In this document: piece after piece, positions 1,867 to 54,597 of the stretch
Layout of the letters: each line of letters opens with the position of its first letter
Numbering within the stretch: position 1 is the stretch's first letter
Source of the DNA: Bacteroidaceae bacterium
GTDB taxonomy: Bacteria; Bacteroidota; Bacteroidia; Bacteroidales; Bacteroidaceae
Reading direction: 5' to 3'
Length of the DNA: 64,000 nt
Assembly: GCA_017962495.1 (NCBI GenBank)
Contig: JAGCVH010000054.1
Location: 6,572-70,571 of the forward strand
Position numbers and translations under genes: made by a program
Notes under the pieces: model-generated
Database searches by the model: none
Told to the model about the DNA's origin: nothing
What the model saw: only the letters and a program-made list of their open reading frames with translations

Positions 1867-1987
1867 CCTTAGGTTCTTGCTCCGTTTCTCTATGCAAGCG
1901 TAGCTTCGCGTCCGATTACGATTGCCGATGAACCTATGTTCGATAGATGTTGAACCTATATTCGATAGTAAATGAACTTATTTTTAT
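1867..1987. repeat. Dispersed intergenic repeat: conserved ~75-bp core followed by 22-bp-phased TGAAC-N4-(G/A)TTCGA palindromic units
   Basis: The core TAGGTTCTTGCTCCGTTTCTCTATGCAAGCGTAG...CGTCCGATTACGA (1870-1921) recurs at 21416-21471. Units start at 1929, 1951 and 1973 (the third is degenerate). Confidence 0.85.
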
Positions 1988-2207
1988 CTTTGACCCACCT
2001 GCGGAGGGTCGAAAATACTTCCGCTCGGAAGAGCTAAAAAAGAGAAAAATATTACTTCGTAATCATGGCCCATGGCCGAGAAATCGTCCCACTCTCCGCT
2101 TTTGTAAGCAAGCTTACTAGCGAAGAGGATACTTTTTCTCTCATTTTTCTCTTTTTTTGGTTCTTCGCTCGCTACCGTATTGTTGCCTTTGATAAAGTGC
2201 TTGTATG

Positions 2208-2970: not shown

Positions 2971-3411
2971 CTAATGTATTAGTTCGCCCGCTTCGCTGAA
3001 CTTTAGGTATATGTCTTTTCTGTTATCTCTATCTAATTCCACGAGATAGTACTTCTCAGTGGGGCTTTCCACCCAATCTACATCATCGACTTCTACACTT
3101 TTGTAGTTCGCGTCCAGATAGTCGAGTGTTTTCTGTGGCAGTTCACTGATCGAAATGTCCTTTTTGGTTCTCACCCATGTGCCATCGTTCTGGAGCCAAA
3201 CCTCCATTTCGTGATAGTTGAAATAGAATTCAGCCTTTAATTGTCTGTGCTTCTCTTTTTCCCACTGTGCTGTGGTGTTTGGAAACATCTTTTGGAAAGT
3301 TGTCATTACTACAGTAGGAACATCAGACGACTTGACGTCGTCGTTGCAACTTACATTGAACACAACCATTGCCGCCATTATTAGGCAGGGAAACAGATTC
3401 TTCAGTTTCAT
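2971..3411 (-). CDS. PepSY-like (DUF2874-type) periplasmic lipoprotein
   Basis: 146 aa with a signal peptide and Cys (VFNVSCNDD). Two repeats of the PepSY-like pattern are present (FP..., YEV/YLVEL..., G.W/GELI). It lies next to a two-component system, as is common in Bacteroidales. Confidence 0.6.
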   Translation of the reverse strand: MKLKNLFPCLIMAAMVVFNVSCNDDVKSSDVPTVVMTTFQKMFPNTTAQWEKEKHRQLKAEFYFNYHEMEVWLQNDGTWVRTKKDISISELPQKTLDYLDANYKSVEVDDVDWVESPTEKYYLVELDRDNRKDIYLKFSEAGELIH

Positions 3412-4452: not shown

Positions 4453-5138
4453 GCTTCGCCCTCCGTATCAAATAGGTAACCATAACCTTGCCGTGTTGTG
4501 ATGTGTTGTCCGTAGTGTCCCAATTTCTTGCGCAGTCGTGTGATGTTGACATCCACTGTGCGGTTGGTAACAACAACGTCGCTTGGCCACACTTCACTGA
4601 GCAGTTGCTGGCGCGAGAATACCCTCCCTTGGTGGCTTAAGAGCAGTCGAAGCAGTTCCAGCTCTGTCTTTGTCAGGTTGAGGGCTTCGCCATCGGCTAT
4701 TACTTTCCTTTGTGAGAGGTCTATCGTTAGCCCTTCGAATACTAATGGACTGGCTATGTCCTTGTTACTCGTTGCTGTTCTTGCCAGCACAGCACGGACT
4801 CTTGCCATCAGTTCTCGCACAGAGAAAGGCTTTGAGATGTAGTCGTCTGCACCCAGTTTGAATCCCTCCAATTTGTCCTCTTCTGCATCCCTCGCTGTAA
4901 GGAAAATAATGGGTGTGTCATAGCCTGATGTGCGTATTTGTCTGGCCATCTCGAACCCCGACATGCCAGGCATCATTACGTCGAGCACCAGCAAGTCGAA
5001 GTTTCCGACATCCTTCCGAAGGGCCTCCATTGCTGAATAGGTCATCTCTGCCTCATAACCTTCTGCCACGAGGTTTACACGCAGGATCTCGCACAAGTCT
5101 TGCTCGTCATCAACGATTAAAATCCGTTTTTTCTTCAT
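4449..5138 (-). CDS. OmpR/PhoB-family response regulator
   Basis: 229 aa. The receiver domain shows ILIVDDE, LLVLDVMMPGMSG and ISKPF. The C-terminal winged helix shows TVDVNITRLRKKL. Confidence 0.92.
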   Translation of the reverse strand: MKKKRILIVDDEQDLCEILRVNLVAEGYEAEMTYSAMEALRKDVGNFDLLVLDVMMPGMSGFEMARQIRTSGYDTPIIFLTARDAEEDKLEGFKLGADDYISKPFSVRELMARVRAVLARTATSNKDIASPLVFEGLTIDLSQRKVIADGEALNLTKTELELLRLLLSHQGRVFSRQQLLSEVWPSDVVVTNRTVDVNITRLRKKLGHYGQHITTRQGYGYLFDTEGEA

Positions 5139-5158
5139 TTCCGGGTCAAAGGTACAAC

Positions 5159-6835
5159 TTATTTTCCAAATCTTGCTTCTACGACATTGACAATATAATC
5201 ACAAAGTTTTTCCATCTCGTTTACAATATCAAAATAGAGCGTGCCGAGAGTATAACTGTATTCGTGGTCGTTAATGGCTTGAATGTTTTCCTCCTTCAAT
5301 TTATTGCGCAGCAAGTTTATCTCATTCTCAATACGATAGGTCTCATTTATATTGTGCTCGGAACGATGACCGTGCATCACTTTGCACATTTGCCGCAGTG
5401 CTTTGTCTGTAAGATCTCTCATCTTGTGCAGGTTGTCAGTTTGTGAAGTGATGAAGGCAAAACTGAGTTCACGATGACGGGCCAGTGTACGGCTTATTTT
5501 GTAGCAAGAATCACCTATACTTTCCAATTCACTCACTTCACTTAGCATTTGCCTTATCTTTTGCTTTGTAGTGTCACTTAGGTGGTCATTCGATAACTGT
5601 GCCAAATACTCGGCTATGGCTTGTTCCATTTTGTCTGATGCATCTTCCTCGCGCTCTATGTTGGCATACTTTTCATCAAAGGAGTCGGCATGGATGTCGT
5701 CCATCAGTTGGGTGACCATCGTAAACATTGTGTGCATACGCTCTGCAAAGAAAGCCGTTTCCTTTTGTGCCTCGAACACCGCGATTTCTGGCGTTGCCAT
5801 CGGACCTGCCTGTATGTATTTCAGGTTTTGCCCATCATGGGCGGATTCGGCCTTCTGTGGTAGCAACCAACGCACTACGCGCTCCAATTGCGGGATGAAA
5901 CTTATGAGTAGTAGCGTGTTCGTGATGTTGAAACAGGTGTGGAACATGGCCAGCACTACAGGTAGTCGAGTAGCCTGCCCGGAAACCGAAGGGTCGTATC
6001 CTGCCAAATAGCATACTCCATTGACAAAGGGATAGAACACGCAAAGCACCCAAAACACACCAAAAACGTTGAACAGAAGGTGGGCCAATGCAGCCCGTCG
6101 TGCCTCTATTCCAGAGCCCATCGCCGCTAAATTGGCAGTGGCCGTGGTGCCAATGTTCTCACCCATGACAAGAGCTATGCCGAGGTGGATGGGCAGAACG
6201 CCCGTGGAGCAGAGCAAGATGGTGATGGCCATGACGGCTGCCGACGATTGGACGATGCAGGTTATCACGGTGCCGATGGCTAAGAAGGCATGAATGGTGA
6301 GATGGCTTGATGTGTCAAATGAGGCAAAAAAAGATACTACAGTTTCGTTATGCTCCAGATCTAATTCCTTGCCTGCCATGCTAAGCATTACCAGTGACCA
6401 GAACATGAAGGCGATGCCAAAGAGGAAATCGCCTACGTAGCGTTGTCGCTTTCTATATATAAGAATGATGCCTAATATGAAAGCTGGAAAAATGATGTTG
6501 CTAAGGTCGACATTATAGCCAAGTGACATAATCCATGCCGTCAGTGTTGTGCCGATGTTTGCACCCATTATGACTGAGATAGCTTGCCCAAGCGTCAGCA
6601 GTCCGGCTGAGACAAACGACACAGTCATCACCGTTGTGGCTGACGACGACTGTACAGCGCACGTCACCATAGTTCCTGTTAACATCCCCGCTAGTCGGTT
6701 TGCTGTCATTTTCCCTAACATGTGTCTCAACTGTGGTCCTGCCATCTTCTGTAAAGCGTCACTCATCATTCTCATACCGAATATGAGTAAGCCAAGGGCA
6801 CCCAAGAGTTTGCTCGCAATAATTGTGTATTCCAT
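5159..6835 (-). CDS. Na+/phosphate cotransporter family protein with a PhoU-like C-terminal domain
   Basis: 558 aa with duplicated Na/Pi-cotransporter repeats (GANIGTTLTAW and GENIGTTATANL). The C-terminal half is a soluble helical PhoU-like region. Confidence 0.85.
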   Translation of the reverse strand: MEYTIIASKLLGALGLLIFGMRMMSDALQKMAGPQLRHMLGKMTANRLAGMLTGTMVTCAVQSSSATTVMTVSFVSAGLLTLGQAISVIMGANIGTTLTAWIMSLGYNVDLSNIIFPAFILGIILIYRKRQRYVGDFLFGIAFMFWSLVMLSMAGKELDLEHNETVVSFFASFDTSSHLTIHAFLAIGTVITCIVQSSAAVMAITILLCSTGVLPIHLGIALVMGENIGTTATANLAAMGSGIEARRAALAHLLFNVFGVFWVLCVFYPFVNGVCYLAGYDPSVSGQATRLPVVLAMFHTCFNITNTLLLISFIPQLERVVRWLLPQKAESAHDGQNLKYIQAGPMATPEIAVFEAQKETAFFAERMHTMFTMVTQLMDDIHADSFDEKYANIEREEDASDKMEQAIAEYLAQLSNDHLSDTTKQKIRQMLSEVSELESIGDSCYKISRTLARHRELSFAFITSQTDNLHKMRDLTDKALRQMCKVMHGHRSEHNINETYRIENEINLLRNKLKEENIQAINDHEYSYTLGTLYFDIVNEMEKLCDYIVNVVEARFGK

Positions 6836-21367: not shown

Positions 21368-21538
21368 GATAGGTGTTCGAGTTCAAATGAGCATAGGCTC
21401 AAGTGAAATCGAATATAGGTTCTTGCTCCGTTTCTCTACGCAAGCGTAGGACTTCGTCCGTCCGATTACGAGTGCAATTGAATATAGGTTCGACGGCATT
21501 CGAGTATAGGCTCGAGGTCCATCGAATATAGGTTCGAT
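21368..21538. repeat. Dispersed intergenic repeat: palindromic units, conserved ~75-bp core and three 22-bp-phased units
   Basis: The core at 21416-21471 is ~85% identical to 1870-1921. Units TGAATATAGGTTCGA (21479), CGAGTATAGGCTCGA (21501) and CGAATATAGGTTCGA (21523) are spaced by exact 22-bp steps. Confidence 0.85.
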
Positions 21539-21662
21539 TGTTATAAGGCATAAGTCCGTGTAAAAGAGTGATATTGTTTGGTTTTACTGCCTTCTTTTTC
21601 CCGTTTTTGGCATAGAACTGGTTTCGCGTTGTCGCTTTTTTGCATGATTCATTATTTATTCT

Positions 21663-27480: not shown

Positions 27481-27688
27481 ATAACCCTATCATGGCAAGA
27501 ACGGCGGCAATGATTATGACGATGTTCCAGATGTTGTCGGAACGCTTGTTCTCTCGCCAGTAATAGAGTAACCCCAAACTGGGAAGGGCAATTAGGATGA
27601 GGCTTGGCCAATAGAGAACCTCCAACCATCGACGGCAGAGGAAAAGCACGATGCCTAATATTCTCAGGTTATGCAATACGGTCTTCAT
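27479..27688 (-). CDS. Small hydrophobic membrane protein (69 aa)
   Basis: Two or three predicted TM helices. No family was recognised. The call rests on the ORF, its hydrophobicity and its position downstream of bcp. Confidence 0.45.
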   Translation of the reverse strand: MKTVLHNLRILGIVLFLCRRWLEVLYWPSLILIALPSLGLLYYWRENKRSDNIWNIVIIIAAVLAMIGL

Positions 27689-27735
27689 AATCCTTAATCC
27701 CTAATCCTTCATCCTTCATCCTTCATCCTTATCCC
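27689..27735. repeat. Heptanucleotide simple-sequence repeat, 6 units plus a partial unit
   Basis: The plus strand reads AATCCTT AATCCCT AATCCTT CATCCTT CATCCTT CATCCTT ATCCC. On the coding (minus) strand this is (AAGGATG)x3 AAGGATT AGGGATT AAGGATT, directly abutting the ATG at 27688. Confidence 0.9.
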
Positions 27736-28187
27736 TTAGTCCTTCAATATTTGACTGGCGTGTTCCTTTGTCTTGATTTCCTTGGGAAGCATGATGCGCT
27801 CGACTATGCCTTCCTCGTTGATGATGAAGGTGGTGCGGAACATGCCCATGTACTTGCGACCATACATCGATTTCTCGCCCCAAGTGCCGAAGGTTTGGCT
27901 AAGTGTTTGCTCGGTGTCGGCAATGAGGTGGAAGGGCAACTGGTTCTTCTCGATGAACTTCTGGTGGCTTTTCTCATCCTGAACGCTCACACCAAGCACC
28001 TCGTACCCTTGTTTGCGGAGTTCCGAATAACCATCGCGTAGGCTGCATGCCTGAGCCGTGCAACCAGAGGTCATATCCTTGGGATAGAAGTACAGTACCA
28101 ACTTCTTGCCGGCATAGTCCGACAGACGAATCTCTTGTCCGTTCTCGTCGCGACCAAGTATCTCGGGGGCTTTGTCACCTACTTTCA

Positions 28188-28188
<1 letters not shown>
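27736..28188 (-). CDS. bcp: Thiol peroxidase / peroxiredoxin Bcp
   Basis: 150 aa with the peroxiredoxin motif (YFYPKDMTSGCTAQAC). The start overlaps the gyrB stop (TAATG). Confidence 0.9.
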
Positions 28189-30182
<1,994 letters not shown>

Positions 30183-30204: not shown

Positions 30205-30212
30205 CAAAGGTA
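30205..30212 (-). promoter_or_regulatory. Bacteroidetes -7 promoter box (TAnnTTTG) for gyrB
   Basis: TACCTTTG on the minus strand, 25 nt upstream of the gyrB ATG. Confidence 0.55.
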
Positions 30213-30544
30213 CGAAAAAAAAGTGAAATACGGAAATAAATTCAAAGAATTTATGCAGGACAACTCAAAGCCATGAAATAGATGCTTTCTAAGAGCAGAA
30301 CAAGGGCCTGTTTTCCACTCAACTGCCACCGTTCTTTCACCGTCCTTCACCCGTCTTTTCGCTTCCTATTTGCCTGCTTTCTGCACAAACTTAACCTCTT
30401 TGGGGAACCCAAGTCAACGCTATCCACATATAAGGCTAAAAGTAGTTAACCAAAACCGTCAAACTACAGAGTAGCGACGACTCTTAGTTGCTTCAATAGC
30501 ATCGCCCCCGTGCTGGAGGCCTGCCTCCTAATACTCCGGCCAGC

Positions 30545-30742
30545 AGCTCTTAGGCGTCGGACGCAAATCACTTAGGCGATTGCTTTATAAGACCTAGGTC
30601 TTTCGCTTATAAGACGTACATCTTTCACGTGTAAGACGTACATCTTTCAGCTATAAGACGTACATCTTTCATTTGCAAGACGTACATCTTTCGTATGTAA
30701 GACGTACGTCTTTACAAGAGAACGCTTAGGCGTTGTGCCTAA
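30545..30742. repeat. Nine-unit array of 14-bp (5+4+5) palindromic units at an exact 22-bp phase
   Basis: Unit starts are 30545, 30567, 30589, 30611, 30633, 30655, 30677, 30699 and 30721. The six inner units are AAGAC-(CTAG/GTAC)-(G/A)TCTT. The flanking units are CTTAGGCG-type and keep the same phase. Confidence 0.92.
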
Positions 30743-30837
30743 GACGCCTAAGAATTTGGGCCAAAACTTACAGGAGTCTTGCCTTTTGCTTGCTTTTGCA
30801 AGGAGAAACACAACTAAGGGCGATAAAACATACCACT

Positions 30838-31317
30838 ATGTTCATCCGATACAGCCTTCTAAAACGCTCGTCGAGTCCCCGCGACGACAATGCACCTCGT
30901 CTTGTTTACGCTGCCGCACAAAGCACGGAGACGGTTAACCTGAAAGCAATTGCACGCCATCTGGTCTCTCATAATTCGGTGTTCTCCGAGGGAACTGTCA
31001 TTGGCATTCTCACCGACTTCCAACGTTGTATACTGGAACATCTGCAACGTGGAGCGCGTGTCGACCTGGATGTGCTCGGTTCTTTCTACACCACCCTGCA
31101 AGGGCGCGGGGTAAACAGTTATGAGGAGTTCACGCCGGACCTTGTGGACCGAGTCAACATCCGTTGGCGGCCTTCGCACGAGATGGAGAAGACCATACAG
31201 CACACTCCTCTGGTACACACCATCAACCGTGCCAGTCAGCGCAGAGCGAAGAAGCAAATGGCGGAAAACGTGAATCGGCAGGTGGAGGAGGATCGTCGCA
31301 GAAGAGAAGCGCAGTAA
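30838..31317 (+). CDS. Bacteroidales HU-like (HU_2-type) DNA-binding protein with a basic C-terminal tail
   Basis: The start is set at MFIRYSLLKRSS. The segment VNLKAIARHLVSHNSVFSEGTVIGILTDFQRCILEHLQRGARVDLDVLGSF has the HU/IHF-like layout typical of Bacteroidales histone-like proteins. The tail is Arg/Lys-rich. Confidence 0.7.
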   Translation: MFIRYSLLKRSSSPRDDNAPRLVYAAAQSTETVNLKAIARHLVSHNSVFSEGTVIGILTDFQRCILEHLQRGARVDLDVLGSFYTTLQGRGVNSYEEFTPDLVDRVNIRWRPSHEMEKTIQHTPLVHTINRASQRRAKKQMAENVNRQVEEDRRRREAQ

Positions 31318-31360
31318 TAGTTGGTCTCTTAAAGCGTGCGCCCGAGTCGGGCAGCCTTTC

Positions 31361-31397
31361 AAAAAGAACGACCGTCCCTCGGTGTGAGGAACGGTCG
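31361..31397 (-). terminator. Rho-independent terminator after rpsT (possibly bidirectional with the HU-like gene)
   Basis: 12-bp stem CGACCGTCCCTC/GAGGAACGGTCG (one mismatch) with loop GGTGT. On the minus strand it is followed by TTCTTTTT. Confidence 0.65.
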
Positions 31398-47718: not shown

Positions 47719-47806
47719 CGAACGCTTGTTCCCTTTTCGTCGAACCTATGTTCGATGCGCTTCGAACGCTTGTTCGATTGCCTTCGAATATAGGTTCGTT
47801 TTACTT
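47719..47806. repeat. Four-unit 22-bp-phased array of CGAAC-N4-GTTCG palindromic units
   Basis: Units are CGAACGCTTGTTC (47719), CGAACCTATGTTCGA (47741), CGAACGCTTGTTCGA (47763) and CGAATATAGGTTCG (47785). The spacing is exactly 22 bp. Confidence 0.9.
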
Positions 47807-54496: not shown

Positions 54497-54597
54497 CGAA
54501 CCTAAGTTCAACCATCCTCGAACCTAGGTTCATTTGCCATCGAACGCTTGTTCAATCGTCATCGAACCTAAGGCCTTTCGAGATAAGCCTTAAGGCT
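54497..54597. repeat. Four-unit 22-bp-phased array of CGAAC-N4-GTTCA palindromic units plus a terminal palindrome
   Basis: CGAAC starts at 54497, 54519, 54541 and 54563, in exact 22-bp steps. AGCCTTAAGGCT at 54586-54597 is a perfect palindrome. Confidence 0.9.

Follow-up and report, generated by a model that had tools for sequence, protein, structure and literature searches.

A described Bacteroidales analogue of the repeats reported here is BrickBuilt of Porphyromonas gingivalis, an intergenic minisatellite or MITE with 19 copies per genome, one of which adjoins an HU-family (PF00216) gene; its suggested role is that of a mobile promoter or a regulatory module (Klein et al. 2015, PMC4596501). 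The REP/BIME sequences of Enterobacteria and Pseudomonas offer a second point of comparison, being high-copy extragenic imperfect palindromes that occur in all intergenic types, form regularly spaced composite arrays, and are bound by several proteins (PMC2817692). Single REPs are GC-rich hairpins of 20-40 nt with alternating orientation and variable linkers; they are linked to RAYT transposases, and transcription usually runs through them at 3' gene ends. The proteins that bind REP/BIME include IHF, gyrase, and Pol I. The 22-bp iterons of R6K, F sopC, ParR/parC, and the omega heptads are helically phased tandem repeats that dimers bind cooperatively, and plasmid iteron, operator, and centromere arrays of this kind often lie just upstream of the binder's own gene, which is autoregulated through them. 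Finally, the dRS3/NIME repeats of Neisseria comprise hundreds of sequences with terminal palindromes (6-8-6) in intergenic mosaic arrays that are hot spots of recombination and insertion; dRS3 copies are split by variable RS units of 50-150 bp and are tied to an IS110-type recombinase of a filamentous phage.

The window, a 64,000-nucleotide stretch of DNA from a Bacteroidaceae bacterium, carries an array of short palindromes between gyrB and an HU-HIG gene. BrickBuilt is strictly intergenic and multicopy, is built of 23-nt tandem units, folds into long stem-loops, changes by whole units between strains, and is often found near promoters, and the arrays described here are likewise a Bacteroidales repeat, with a 22-bp tandem unit at 120 loci or more, most of them intergenic. 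In contrast to the 23-nt, spacerless BrickBuilt units, however, ours combine a conserved 14-bp palindrome with a free 8-bp linker to give exactly 22 bp, and no leader, tail, or TIR of the BrickBuilt type flanks the window array, which has only an 11-nt inverted repeat, TCTTAGGCGTC. BLAST matches to BrickBuilt are confined to P. gingivalis and P. gulae (PMC4596501); our comparison is by description, the unit having been published as a logo. The earlier statement that no Bacteroidales element of this form had been described consequently needs qualifying, as BrickBuilt is a described analogue whose defining parts differ. With respect to REP/BIME, our sites differ in being symmetric over 14 bp, in their AT-rich arms, in their direct 22-bp tandem arrangement, and in a recurrent neighbor of the HU fold. 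A RAYT (IS200/IS605-like Y1 transposase) was absent among the best 25 of 66 Pfam families found in 99 array-adjacent ORFs. The arrays share short phased tandem repeats, conserved cores, and free spacers with plasmid iterons and centromeres, but those are single-copy per replicon beside rep or par, whereas ours are multicopy, chromosomal, and without rep or par. They also differ from dRS3/NIME in their fixed 8-bp linkers, and no link to such a recombinase was seen.

Several other known arrangements were considered and rejected. A CRISPR array would need a repeat of at least 23 nt and a spacer of at least 21 nt, as opposed to the 14-bp repeat and 8-bp linker seen here, and no cas genes are nearby. 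An inverton served by an Mpi-type invertase, in which two inverted repeats would enclose a promoter, does not fit tandem repeats with no promoter between them and no recombinase nearby; the unit at 30699 presumably resembles the Bacteroides fragilis Mpi repeat consensus (ARACGTWCGT), but the other centers mismatch it. Related arrays of CGAAC-N4-GTTCG sites resemble the Gram-positive LexA (Cheo) box, and their tandem density is unlike an SOS regulon. LytTR-type sites are 21-22-bp direct-repeat pairs, not arrays of 4-10 palindromes. A phage or plasmid element was set aside because a search of 2.9 million viral contigs gave one match, to the contig that also carries array locus L113, a plasmid collection gave no DNA match, and a phage collection gave no protein match.

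Direct reading of the sequence places ten units in strict 22-bp register over 30545-30764 (Table 1), eight of them 5-4-5 palindromes and six of those eight of the type AAGAC-N4-(G/A)TCTT, with homogeneous central units and degenerate edges. The preliminary description had listed nine units, each starting exactly 22 bp from the next, and those nine, their phase and architecture, the four identical 15-nt cores beside four different 7-nt linkers, and the position in a 658-bp divergent spacer between gyrB and an HU-like gene all hold. It had implied that unit 30567 was perfect, when one arm position is mismatched, and a tenth, degenerate unit in phase at 30743 must be added. The copies of CTTAGGCG that it reported are present but one base away, at 30549, 30571, and 30725, and a fourth lies inverted at 30745-30752.

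The 22-bp-phased palindromes are confirmed as real and far beyond chance. TRF gave a period of 22 with 5.9 copies (30585-30713), and a repeat search of the window returned six copies with the 22-bp spacing five times. Allowing at most one mismatch, the longest phased 5-4-5 chain is 8 in the window, whereas 40 shuffled versions of it gave no more than 3-4, and AAGACNNNNRTCTT has 11 matches where 0.25 are expected, a number reached in none of 100 shuffles. The window element folds as a single long imperfect hairpin (-79 kcal/mol, z -7.4). An assembly artefact is ruled out by an ENA metagenome contig that is 100% identical across the whole spacer, and also by Logan contigs from other runs, which are 97% identical and have the same number of units.

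Table 1. Coordinates of array units, neighboring genes, predicted promoter elements, sister arrays, and starts of homology. Positions are those of the window unless a line names other contigs only.
Feature	Position	Strand	Remarks
gyrB	28188-30179	-	
gyrB canonical Bacteroidetes -7 box TACCTTTG	30205..30212	-	array ~350 bp upstream of box
Segment of left spacer, array, promoter, and HU-HIG gene	30254..31361	.	present in this genome
Outermost in-phase degenerate unit AGCTC-TTAG-GCGTC	30545..30566	.	3 arm mismatches
Left arm of 11-nt terminal inverted repeat TCTTAGGCGTC	30548-30558		inside unit 30545
Flanking unit ATCAC-TTAG-GCGAT	30567..30588	.	other arms; 5-4-5+8 build and phase kept; 1 mismatch
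Six core units	30589..30720	.	8-nt linkers all distinct
Core unit AAGAC-CTAG-GTCTT	start 30589		0 mismatches
Core units AAGAC-GTAC-ATCTT (four)	starts 30611, 30633, 30655, 30677		1 mismatch each
Core unit AAGAC-GTAC-GTCTT	start 30699		0 mismatches
Flanking unit AACGC-TTAG-GCGTT	30721..30742	.	perfect palindrome, compensated arm changes
Tenth in-phase degenerate unit GACGC-CTAA-GAATT	30743..30764	.	
Right arm of terminal inverted repeat	30743-30753		reverse complement of 30548-30558, inside unit 30743
Putative HU-HIG core promoter	30760..30798	+	predicted by by-eye alignment with L006 and L131
-33-like AAAACTTACAGG and degenerate -7 box TGCTTTTG (30791-30798)	in putative HU-HIG promoter	+	
HU-HIG gene	30838..31317	+	159 aa; Pfam PF18291
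Sister 22-bp array, arms (T/C)GAAC ... (G/A)TTCG	1929..1994	.	
Sister 22-bp array, TCGAA-TATA-GGTTCGA type	21468..21547	.	
Sister 22-bp array, CGAAC-N4-GTTCG x4	47719..47798	.	
Sister 22-bp array, CGAAC-N4-GTTCA x3 and outer CTAAGG-type units	54497..54576	.	
Homology start, L006 vs L008	L006 position 480		99.75% identical from there
Homology start, L002 vs L010	2769		
Homology start, L006 vs window	30611		
Homology start, L003 vs L006	552		

The window array is one copy of a dispersed intergenic repeat family of gut and rumen Bacteroidales, which is apparently undescribed; literature searches turned up no account of such arrays. An array-first scan of metagenomes returned at least 120 loci, and the window itself holds five 22-bp arrays, one of the AAGAC type and four of the CGAAC type. 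The array is thus not peculiar to the gyrB/HU spacer, nor is an HU-like neighbor a general feature, because most copies have none. By crude ORF calls, 10 array-bearing spacers are divergent, 21 tandem, and 11 convergent, which is the random expectation; this gives no support to a preference for promoter-bearing spacers and indicates that association with promoters is not a property of the family at large. Outward-facing -7 boxes are nevertheless enriched 3-5 times at 50-200 nt from array ends, with a weak mod-22 peak in the distance from array to box (10/57, partly non-independent data). For the five window arrays, the nearest -7 box is 76-180 nt away, and the array is upstream wherever the box faces away from it.

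Comparison of array copies indicates which parts of the unit are constrained. Between close orthologous pairs, substitutions affect 0 of 220 arm, 0 of 88 center, and 7 of 176 linker positions, and in a more diverged pair, the window and L006, differences amount to 19% in arms, 46% in centers, and 55% in linkers. As had been proposed, the palindromes are under selection and are not a product of recent slippage: all seven substitutions of the close pairs fall in linkers, and arms change most slowly in the diverged pair. Successive sites in the metagenome loci are exactly 22 bp apart in 223 of 228 pairs, about half of which were not forced by the search pattern, the exceptions being one at 21 and four at 44. 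Because linkers diverge this far with essentially no indels, helical phase also appears to be under selection. The self-complementary centers GCGC, CTAG, CGCG, GTAC, TTAA, and CATG make up about 30% of 395 units (6% expected), so that two-fold symmetry often reaches through the center.

Although most arrays lie elsewhere, the pairing of array and HU-like gene persists from one genomic context to another. Of 17 contigs with homologous HU-HIG genes, 16 have an array of the same type, with 4-6 units, upstream of the gene, and these pairs occupy at least four genomic contexts. An array is present in all five groups of HU-HIG homologues at 72-94% identity, its last unit beginning 139-171 nt ahead of the ATG, and a homologue at 46% identity (L140), picked without selection for arrays, has one as well. 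In 900 kb of array-selected contigs, all seven HU-HIG genes directly adjoin an array, and HU-HIG is the only recurrent family in the best 25 of 66 families among the 99 array-adjacent ORFs. Array orientation relative to the HU gene varies by lineage, as judged by higher-scoring inverted BLAST matches, which fits two-fold symmetric sites. In the window, as in every close HU-linked homologue, the -7 box lies downstream of the array, and no promoter reads into the array. A canonical TAnnTTTG box follows HU-linked arrays; in L079 and L084 it is 56 nt beyond the last unit, and in the window the putative, degenerate box TGCTTTTG falls opposite the canonical TACCTTTG when homologous loci are aligned by eye. 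The notion that all HU-HIG paralogues carry arrays with a 22-bp lag was rejected, as the more distant P0017, P0019, P0022, and P0029 have none.

The product of the adjacent gene, annotated as hypothetical protein MBP5514281.1 of a Bacteroidaceae MAG, matches Pfam PF18291 well above the cut-off (E 2.3e-22; 79.8 bits versus 26.2). Its AF2 model (pLDDT 88) is predicted to have the HU/IHF fold, with 4FMR as the top Foldseek match followed by IHF/HU-DNA complexes, and together these place the gene in the HU-HIG clade; a PDB sequence search with the protein profile gave no match, and the fold search alone did. It is plausible from the model that the product binds the array. In the model the tip of the beta-arm is acidic (EEF), an unusual feature for insertion into DNA that counts against HU-HIG as the binder. 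The sole comparative study of HU-HIG proteins found no conserved gene linkage for them and argued from evolutionary patterns that a role as sequence-specific transcription factors is unlikely (Burroughs et al. 2017, PMC5499826).

Taken together, the constraint on arms, the rigid 22-bp spacing, and the link to HU-HIG genes favor reading the array as operator- or iteron-like, with dimers bound along a single face of the DNA. In this respect the operator reading of the preliminary description is supported, but a strict replication iteron does not, as there is no rep gene, and neither iterons nor a chromosomal origin fit a spacer with a single DnaA-like box, no DnaA-box cluster, and no skew switch. 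Tentatively, and with somewhat less than even confidence, we favor a dispersed repeat, distributed like BIME or BrickBuilt, that would act at the DNA level as a phased platform for symmetric dimers, with HU-HIG as the leading candidate binder. The element consists of 14-bp two-fold symmetric sites, AAGAC-N4-GTCTT, placed exactly 22 bp or about two helical turns apart, and each site would take a single symmetric dimer whose two subunits occupy the two 5-bp half-sites; an HU-HIG dimer on AAGACGTACGTCTT would meet half-site centers 9 bp apart. The 22-bp register would then put successive dimers on nearly the same face, allowing cooperative binding and a short nucleoprotein filament, which in the window would lie at roughly -60 to -250 from the HU-HIG transcript start and set transcription of that gene. 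Phased, conserved-core tandem sites immediately upstream of the promoter of a DNA-binding-protein gene are what characterizes autoregulatory operators and centromere-like arrays, and this is the arrangement found here. HU-HIG itself is the most likely binder; the array would then serve as a control region upstream of its own gene, which would be autoregulated, and the many solitary arrays would be its other genomic sites. The anatomy of the array, the constraint on arms and spacing with free linkers, the recurrent association with HU-HIG, the location ahead of the promoter, and the spread of the family are observed; protein binding, the identity of the binder, and the sign of any regulatory effect are inferred. 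Against the HU-HIG platform, about 94% of arrays have no HU-HIG neighbor (about 6% do), and contig L016 encodes a protein identical to P0005 yet has no array.

It is doubtful, but worth stating, that a whole HU-HIG subfamily serves as sequence-specific "array readers," with one dimer per 14-bp palindrome forming cooperative filaments on 22-bp-phased arrays that are dense across the chromosome, a private array for autoregulation, and other paralogues possibly reading other palindromes such as CGAAC or TCCCTA-TAGGGA. An array of the latter type, with a 23-bp period, is found upstream of a distant HU-HIG gene in a finished replicon of Segatella hominis, which also speaks for the platform favored above. 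If array readers exist, their proteins and cis-elements would form an unrecognized nucleoid-organizing or silencing system; no H-NS-type silencer is known in this phylum. In gut Bacteroidota the HU-HIG proteins rank with the most expanded DNA-binding families, yet neither a DNA target nor a function is known for any of them. A constrained cis-element before one subfamily provides a concrete and cheaply testable hypothesis. Whatever the binder, the arrays are a dense and previously unannotated class of intergenic repeats in rumen and gut Prevotella-like genomes, where they mark breakpoints of gene-cassette exchange and adjoin promoters of housekeeping and polysaccharide genes. They are consequently relevant to annotation, assembly, models of transcription control, and, through whole-unit copy changes, strain typing.

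Unlikely, though to be taken seriously, is a selfish or neutral dispersed minisatellite or MITE of the BrickBuilt or REP/BIME kind with no host regulatory role, which would spread by transposition or inter-copy recombination and grow or shrink by whole units. Its arms would be kept for a mobilizing enzyme, a hairpin, or template-switching, and the association with HU-HIG would reflect co-mobilization. Such a history is consistent with the 78-82% identity of the window array, including some linkers, to L030, L050, and L043, which share neither flanks nor an HU gene with it and whose homology stops near 30763, and with the exact 22-bp unit indel between L030 and L050. The 11-nt terminal inverted repeat, the long hairpin fold, the homogeneous center with degenerate edges, and the random spread over spacer types agree with it as well, and so does an exact 32-nt leader common to two CGAAC arrays, the only such leader found. 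Furthermore, AAGACC opens the 5' TIR of BrickBuilt copy 3 and GGTCTT closes the 3' TIR of copy 6, and the centers of HU-linked arrays conform to YTAR. YTAR is the target of IS5. At the locus itself, the proposed check of the orthologous spacer went against conservation, as close relatives have neither the array nor the HU gene there and carry an unrelated 736-bp AT-rich segment in place of 30254..31361. With this other segment in the relatives, however, there is no clean filled and empty site, nor was a target-site duplication found, and no transposase or RAYT-type gene stands beside arrays among the best 25 of the 66 neighbor families. Vertically inherited arrays upstream of HU genes also keep their arms and spacing without indels while linkers approach saturation. 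A dead copy would need neither kept arms nor exact spacing, which argues against a selfish repeat, and it is difficult to envisage conversion tracts that leave out the 8-nt linkers.

That the arrays are platforms for some other conserved protein, either a dimeric regulator or one of the nucleoid, with HU-HIG genes as frequent targets, is in our view rather doubtful. The AAGAC/GTCTT arms are unchanged across HU-HIG proteins of 31-94% identity, and this constancy suits an unrelated conserved binder equally well, as does the large majority of arrays without an HU-HIG neighbor. Helix-turn-helix dimers, those of the CRP/FNR type among them, also classically recognize 5-4-5 palindromes, and LexA-like S24 and XRE-type genes adjoin some array loci. 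On the other hand, no other DNA-binding family recurs beside arrays within the best 25 of 66, classical regulators do not usually have sets of 4-9 sites, and five arrays per 64 kb is far denser than a normal regulon.

Improbable is a recombination substrate or cassette boundary, at which HU-HIG cassettes and neighboring DNA would be exchanged through homologous recombination between arrays or by a site-specific enzyme with an HU-fold accessory factor. Proteins of the HU/IHF type are known to assist recombination as accessory factors (PMC5499826). Homology starts exactly at an array unit in four independent comparisons (Table 1), that between the window and L003 stops at the HU stop codon, and the locus is replaced in relatives, yet the breakpoint between the window and L147 lies off the array, about 290 bp to its left, no recombinase gene is linked, and any dispersed repeat would be expected to carry breakpoints whether or not it has a function.

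Very improbable is an RNA-level element of transcribed tandem 5-bp hairpins or one long hairpin acting in leader stability, termination, or translation: a canonical -7 box does read into the array at 13 loci or more and the predicted fold of the window element is far better than those of shuffled sequences, but the array is upstream of the promoter in the window and its close HU-linked homologues, non-Watson-Crick arm pairs in the sense RNA of loci that promoters read into are A.C in 12 cases and G.U in 3, self-complementary 4-nt centers make no sense as loops, and independent hairpins need no rigid spacing, all of which disfavors the mini-hairpin transcript suggested earlier. An Rfam 15 search of the window at gathering score returned a single tRNA, with only sub-threshold miRNA-type noise over the array at permissive E-values. 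At the loci with a box reading in, it stands 13 or 25-27 nt before the first unit, indicating that the position of arrays relative to promoters is not uniform. These loci include the leaders of two distant HU-HIG genes and of an FGGY kinase, as well as a small membrane protein whose ATG follows the array by 25 nt. Two further reading frames touch the window array, a 54-aa GTG ORF on the minus strand (30647-30811) that overlaps part of it and a TTG-extended version of the HU ORF that begins at 30733; both are unlikely to be real coding sequence.

The spacer between gyrB and the gene for an HU-HIG protein (an HU/IHF-like DNA-binding family, Pfam PF18291) holds ten units in 22-bp register, read directly from the sequence; eight in a row form 5-4-5 palindromes whose arms mismatch at one position or none, and the linkers beside the four identical cores all differ. 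The preliminary description of this array was correct, except for positions off by one base and an arm mismatch that it missed. The 22-bp period was reported by TRF and by a second repeat search, shuffled windows reached chains of at most 3-4 phased palindromes against the 8 here, and AAGACNNNNRTCTT occurs 11 times in the window versus 0.25 expected. An independent ENA assembly matches the spacer at 100% identity, and Logan assemblies of other runs match it at 97% with equal unit number. The source Bacteroidaceae MAG annotates the HU-HIG gene as "hypothetical protein." The left half of the spacer also carries a 10-bp CACCGTTCTT-like repeat (2.4 copies, 30327-30351) and a lone near-consensus DnaA box, CTATCCACA (30420-30428); no DnaA-box cluster was found in the spacer. 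A 7-bp tandem repeat, TAATCCT x8 (27688-27744), adjoins the start of an AhpC/TSA-family gene (27736-28188).

Coordinates of array units, related arrays and flanking features
Feature	Sequence or product	Position	Strand	Period
Unit 1 (first of ten)	AGCTC-TTAG-GCGTC	in window 30545-30764		22 bp
Unit 2	ATCAC-TTAG-GCGAT	in window 30545-30764		22 bp
Unit 3	AAGAC-CTAG-GTCTT	in window 30545-30764		22 bp
Units 4-7	AAGAC-GTAC-ATCTT x4	in window 30545-30764		22 bp
Unit 8	AAGAC-GTAC-GTCTT	in window 30545-30764		22 bp
Unit 9	AACGC-TTAG-GCGTT	in window 30545-30764		22 bp
Unit 10 (last)	GACGC-CTAA-GAATT	in window 30545-30764		22 bp
gyrB, flanks array		window 28188-30179	minus	
gyrB -7 box		window 30205-30212		
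HU-HIG -7 box	TGCTTTTG, degenerate	window 30791-30798		
HU-HIG gene, flanks array	159 aa	window 30838-31317	plus	
CGAAC array		window 1929-1994		22 bp
CGAAC array		window 21468-21547		22 bp
CGAAC array		window 47719-47798		22 bp
CGAAC array		window 54497-54576		22 bp
Segatella hominis array	TCCCTA(T)TAGGGA	contig L150 15008-15073 = NZ_CP137560.1 115008-115073		23 bp

Scanning metagenomes for a pair of adjacent units gave at least 120 loci, with 112 distinct arrays of 2-7 units each; only one viral contig matched, and a plasmid search gave no match. Unit centers are frequently self-complementary at these loci. Flanking units that keep phase and architecture but have different arms recur across them, and first flanking units with at least 4/5 complementary arm pairs amounted to 18% in phase versus 2% out of phase. 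By crude ORF calls, the array-bearing spacers (10 divergent, 21 tandem, 11 convergent) match random expectation. Three fetched contigs (L030, L050, and L043) carry arrays 78-82% identical to the window's over their whole length, some linkers included, within different flanks and with no HU gene, and the difference between L030 and L050 is exactly one 22-bp unit. The window holds four further 22-bp arrays of CGAAC-N4-GTTCG 5-4-5 palindromes, all intergenic and none (0/4) adjoining an HU-like gene; among other periods of 14-33 bp, it yielded no arrays except multiples of one 7-bp repeat. An exact 32-nt sequence, GGTTCTTGCTCCGTTTCTCTAYGCAAGCGTAG (1872-1903 and 21418-21449), precedes two CGAAC arrays in the same orientation, its copies sitting within ~60 nt of shared sequence, and was not found in the fetched loci. 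Judged by sequence, it looks like part of a leader-plus-array composite repeat.

By kind, the family is a dispersed palindromic repeat or operator-like array. Compared with REP/BIME, iterons, CRISPR arrays, and invertons, it lacks features that define each of them. The literature search found no description of these 22-bp arrays, in keeping with the earlier claim that no such Bacteroidales element was described, but that claim had passed over the nearest described element, the BrickBuilt minisatellite/MITE of Porphyromonas gingivalis. The leader, tail, and IS5-like TIRs that define BrickBuilt (PMC4596501) are absent from the family, whose repeat-plus-free-linker design is distinct. The evidence best supports a dispersed repeat, distributed much as BIME or BrickBuilt elements are, that would offer a symmetric dimer a phased platform for binding. 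Its main rival is a selfish minisatellite or MITE-like repeat; the rival readings considered here are partly compatible with one another.

Constraint on the units bears on this rival. At the metagenome loci, the step from one site to the next is 22 bp in 223/228 cases. Pooled close orthologous pairs show substitutions at 0/220 arm, 0/88 center, and 7/176 linker positions, every change thus being in a linker, and the window differs from contig L006 (~76% identical over the shared array and HU-HIG region) at 19% of arm, 46% of center, and 55% of linker positions. Linkers are near saturation and spacing almost unchanged, which argues for purifying selection on half-sites and helical register, as first proposed for the palindromes, and against both simple recent slippage and a decaying mobile-element copy.

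Homologues of the window HU-HIG protein were taken at 45-94% identity and their contigs fetched. All five groups at 72-94% identity have AAGAC-N4-GTCTT arrays of 4-6 units at exact 22-bp spacing, the last unit starting 139-171 nt before the HU-HIG ATG, and the array is present in 16 of their 17 contigs. Only in L016 are array and promoter both lost; its HU-HIG protein is identical to that of L014, with homology from ~60 nt before the ATG (L016 1-207), and the contig is either genuinely rearranged or a short chimera. Neighbors vary from group to group (gyrB, a RhuM-family gene, Vsr, and a BspA-type LRR protein). Of 99 ORFs pointing away from arrays, 6 were HU-HIG, the only Pfam family to recur, the others being singletons among the best 25 of 66 families. 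A broad HU-HIG profile (164 sequences) found 7 genes in 900 kb of array-selected contigs, all 7 directly adjoining an array. L140, found without array selection, has an array with a 46%-identical HU-HIG gene; none was present at the more distant paralogues P0017, P0019, P0022, and P0029. The finished Segatella hominis replicon carries a 23-bp-period TCCCTA-TAGGGA palindrome array, different in arms but similar in architecture, which lies ~85-150 bp upstream of an HU-HIG gene carried by a prophage (protein 31% identical to the window's). The only comparative HU-HIG study reported no conserved linkages (PMC5499826).

Several HU-HIG loci have features of their own. In a roe-deer MAG homologue, AAGGGGC x7 within the 3' end of the ORF (L002 3497-3548) would give the protein a variable-length tail of low complexity. 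In L014 (2942-3613), L015, and L016, the P0005-type gene overlaps a convergent HTH + Peptidase_S24 (LexA/CI-like) gene and has a Vsr endonuclease gene upstream, which suggests a mobile-island context. The 190-nt array-to-HU-HIG leader of L060 (~2997-3186), like the equivalent L093 region, is crowded with AACTCTTAAC-like short repeats and contains a CCCCTTTAGGGGGCTTGGGGGCC hairpin.

The window protein matches Pfam HU-HIG, and its AF2 model (pLDDT 88) agrees, with best structural matches to the Bacteroides HU-HIG structure 4FMR and then to IHF/HU-DNA complexes. In IHF-DNA structures, the arms of an HU/IHF dimer make two kinks 9 bp apart. The half-site centers are also 9 bp apart, a spacing that would be compatible with such a dimer, as an argument from compatibility and not as evidence. 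HU-HIG is the leading candidate binder, and the window array a putative autoregulatory upstream region of its gene. We hold the DNA-level platform with this candidate tentatively, at somewhat short of an even chance; within it, HU-HIG itself is rather unlikely to be the binder. A different protein may occupy the arrays, most of which are without an HU-HIG neighbor.

The arrays may instead mark a recombination boundary. Four independent BLAST comparisons of HU-linked loci place the start of homology exactly on an array unit, and homology between the window and L003 stops at the HU stop codon. Close relatives (gyrB DNA 91% identical) retain FtsZ-RecO-rpsT-gyrB synteny and have an unrelated 736-bp AT-rich segment in place of window 30254-31361 (left spacer, array, and HU-HIG); array and gene thus show the behavior of an accessory cassette. 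The replacing segment (gyrB-rpsT spacer; L147-L149, reverse complement, ~4890-5260) has a short 22-bp array of hybrid CGAGC-CTAT-ATCTT units and an inverted pair, TGTGACAATTGTGACAA / TTGTCACAATTGTCACA, around ~300 bp of almost pure A+T, possibly an inverton or some other element.

The array lies upstream of a Bacteroidetes -7 box in the window and at all close HU-linked loci, the HU-HIG box being TACCTTTG in homologues, and no -7 box reading into the window array was found. At least 13 loci form another class, in which a box lies 13 or 25-27 nt ahead of the first unit and is directed into the array; non-Watson-Crick arm pairs in the sense RNA there are A.C in 12 cases versus G.U in 3, so hairpin conservation is not favored. 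Rfam gave no match for the array, and the long hairpin into which the window element can fold carries little weight because any tandem palindrome array folds so. These observations favor a DNA-level role over the transcribed mini-hairpins once suggested. Two promoter-leader-array modules are conserved, CGTACCTTTGCAACGTCGAAAGGGGACAG|AAGAC... (L037, L060, L086, L093, L118, L127, L128, and L134) and CACTTACCTTTGCCGAC|AAGAC... (L053, L083, L117, L119, and L129); both direct a canonical -7 box into the array ahead of unrelated downstream genes and resemble a portable promoter and leader.
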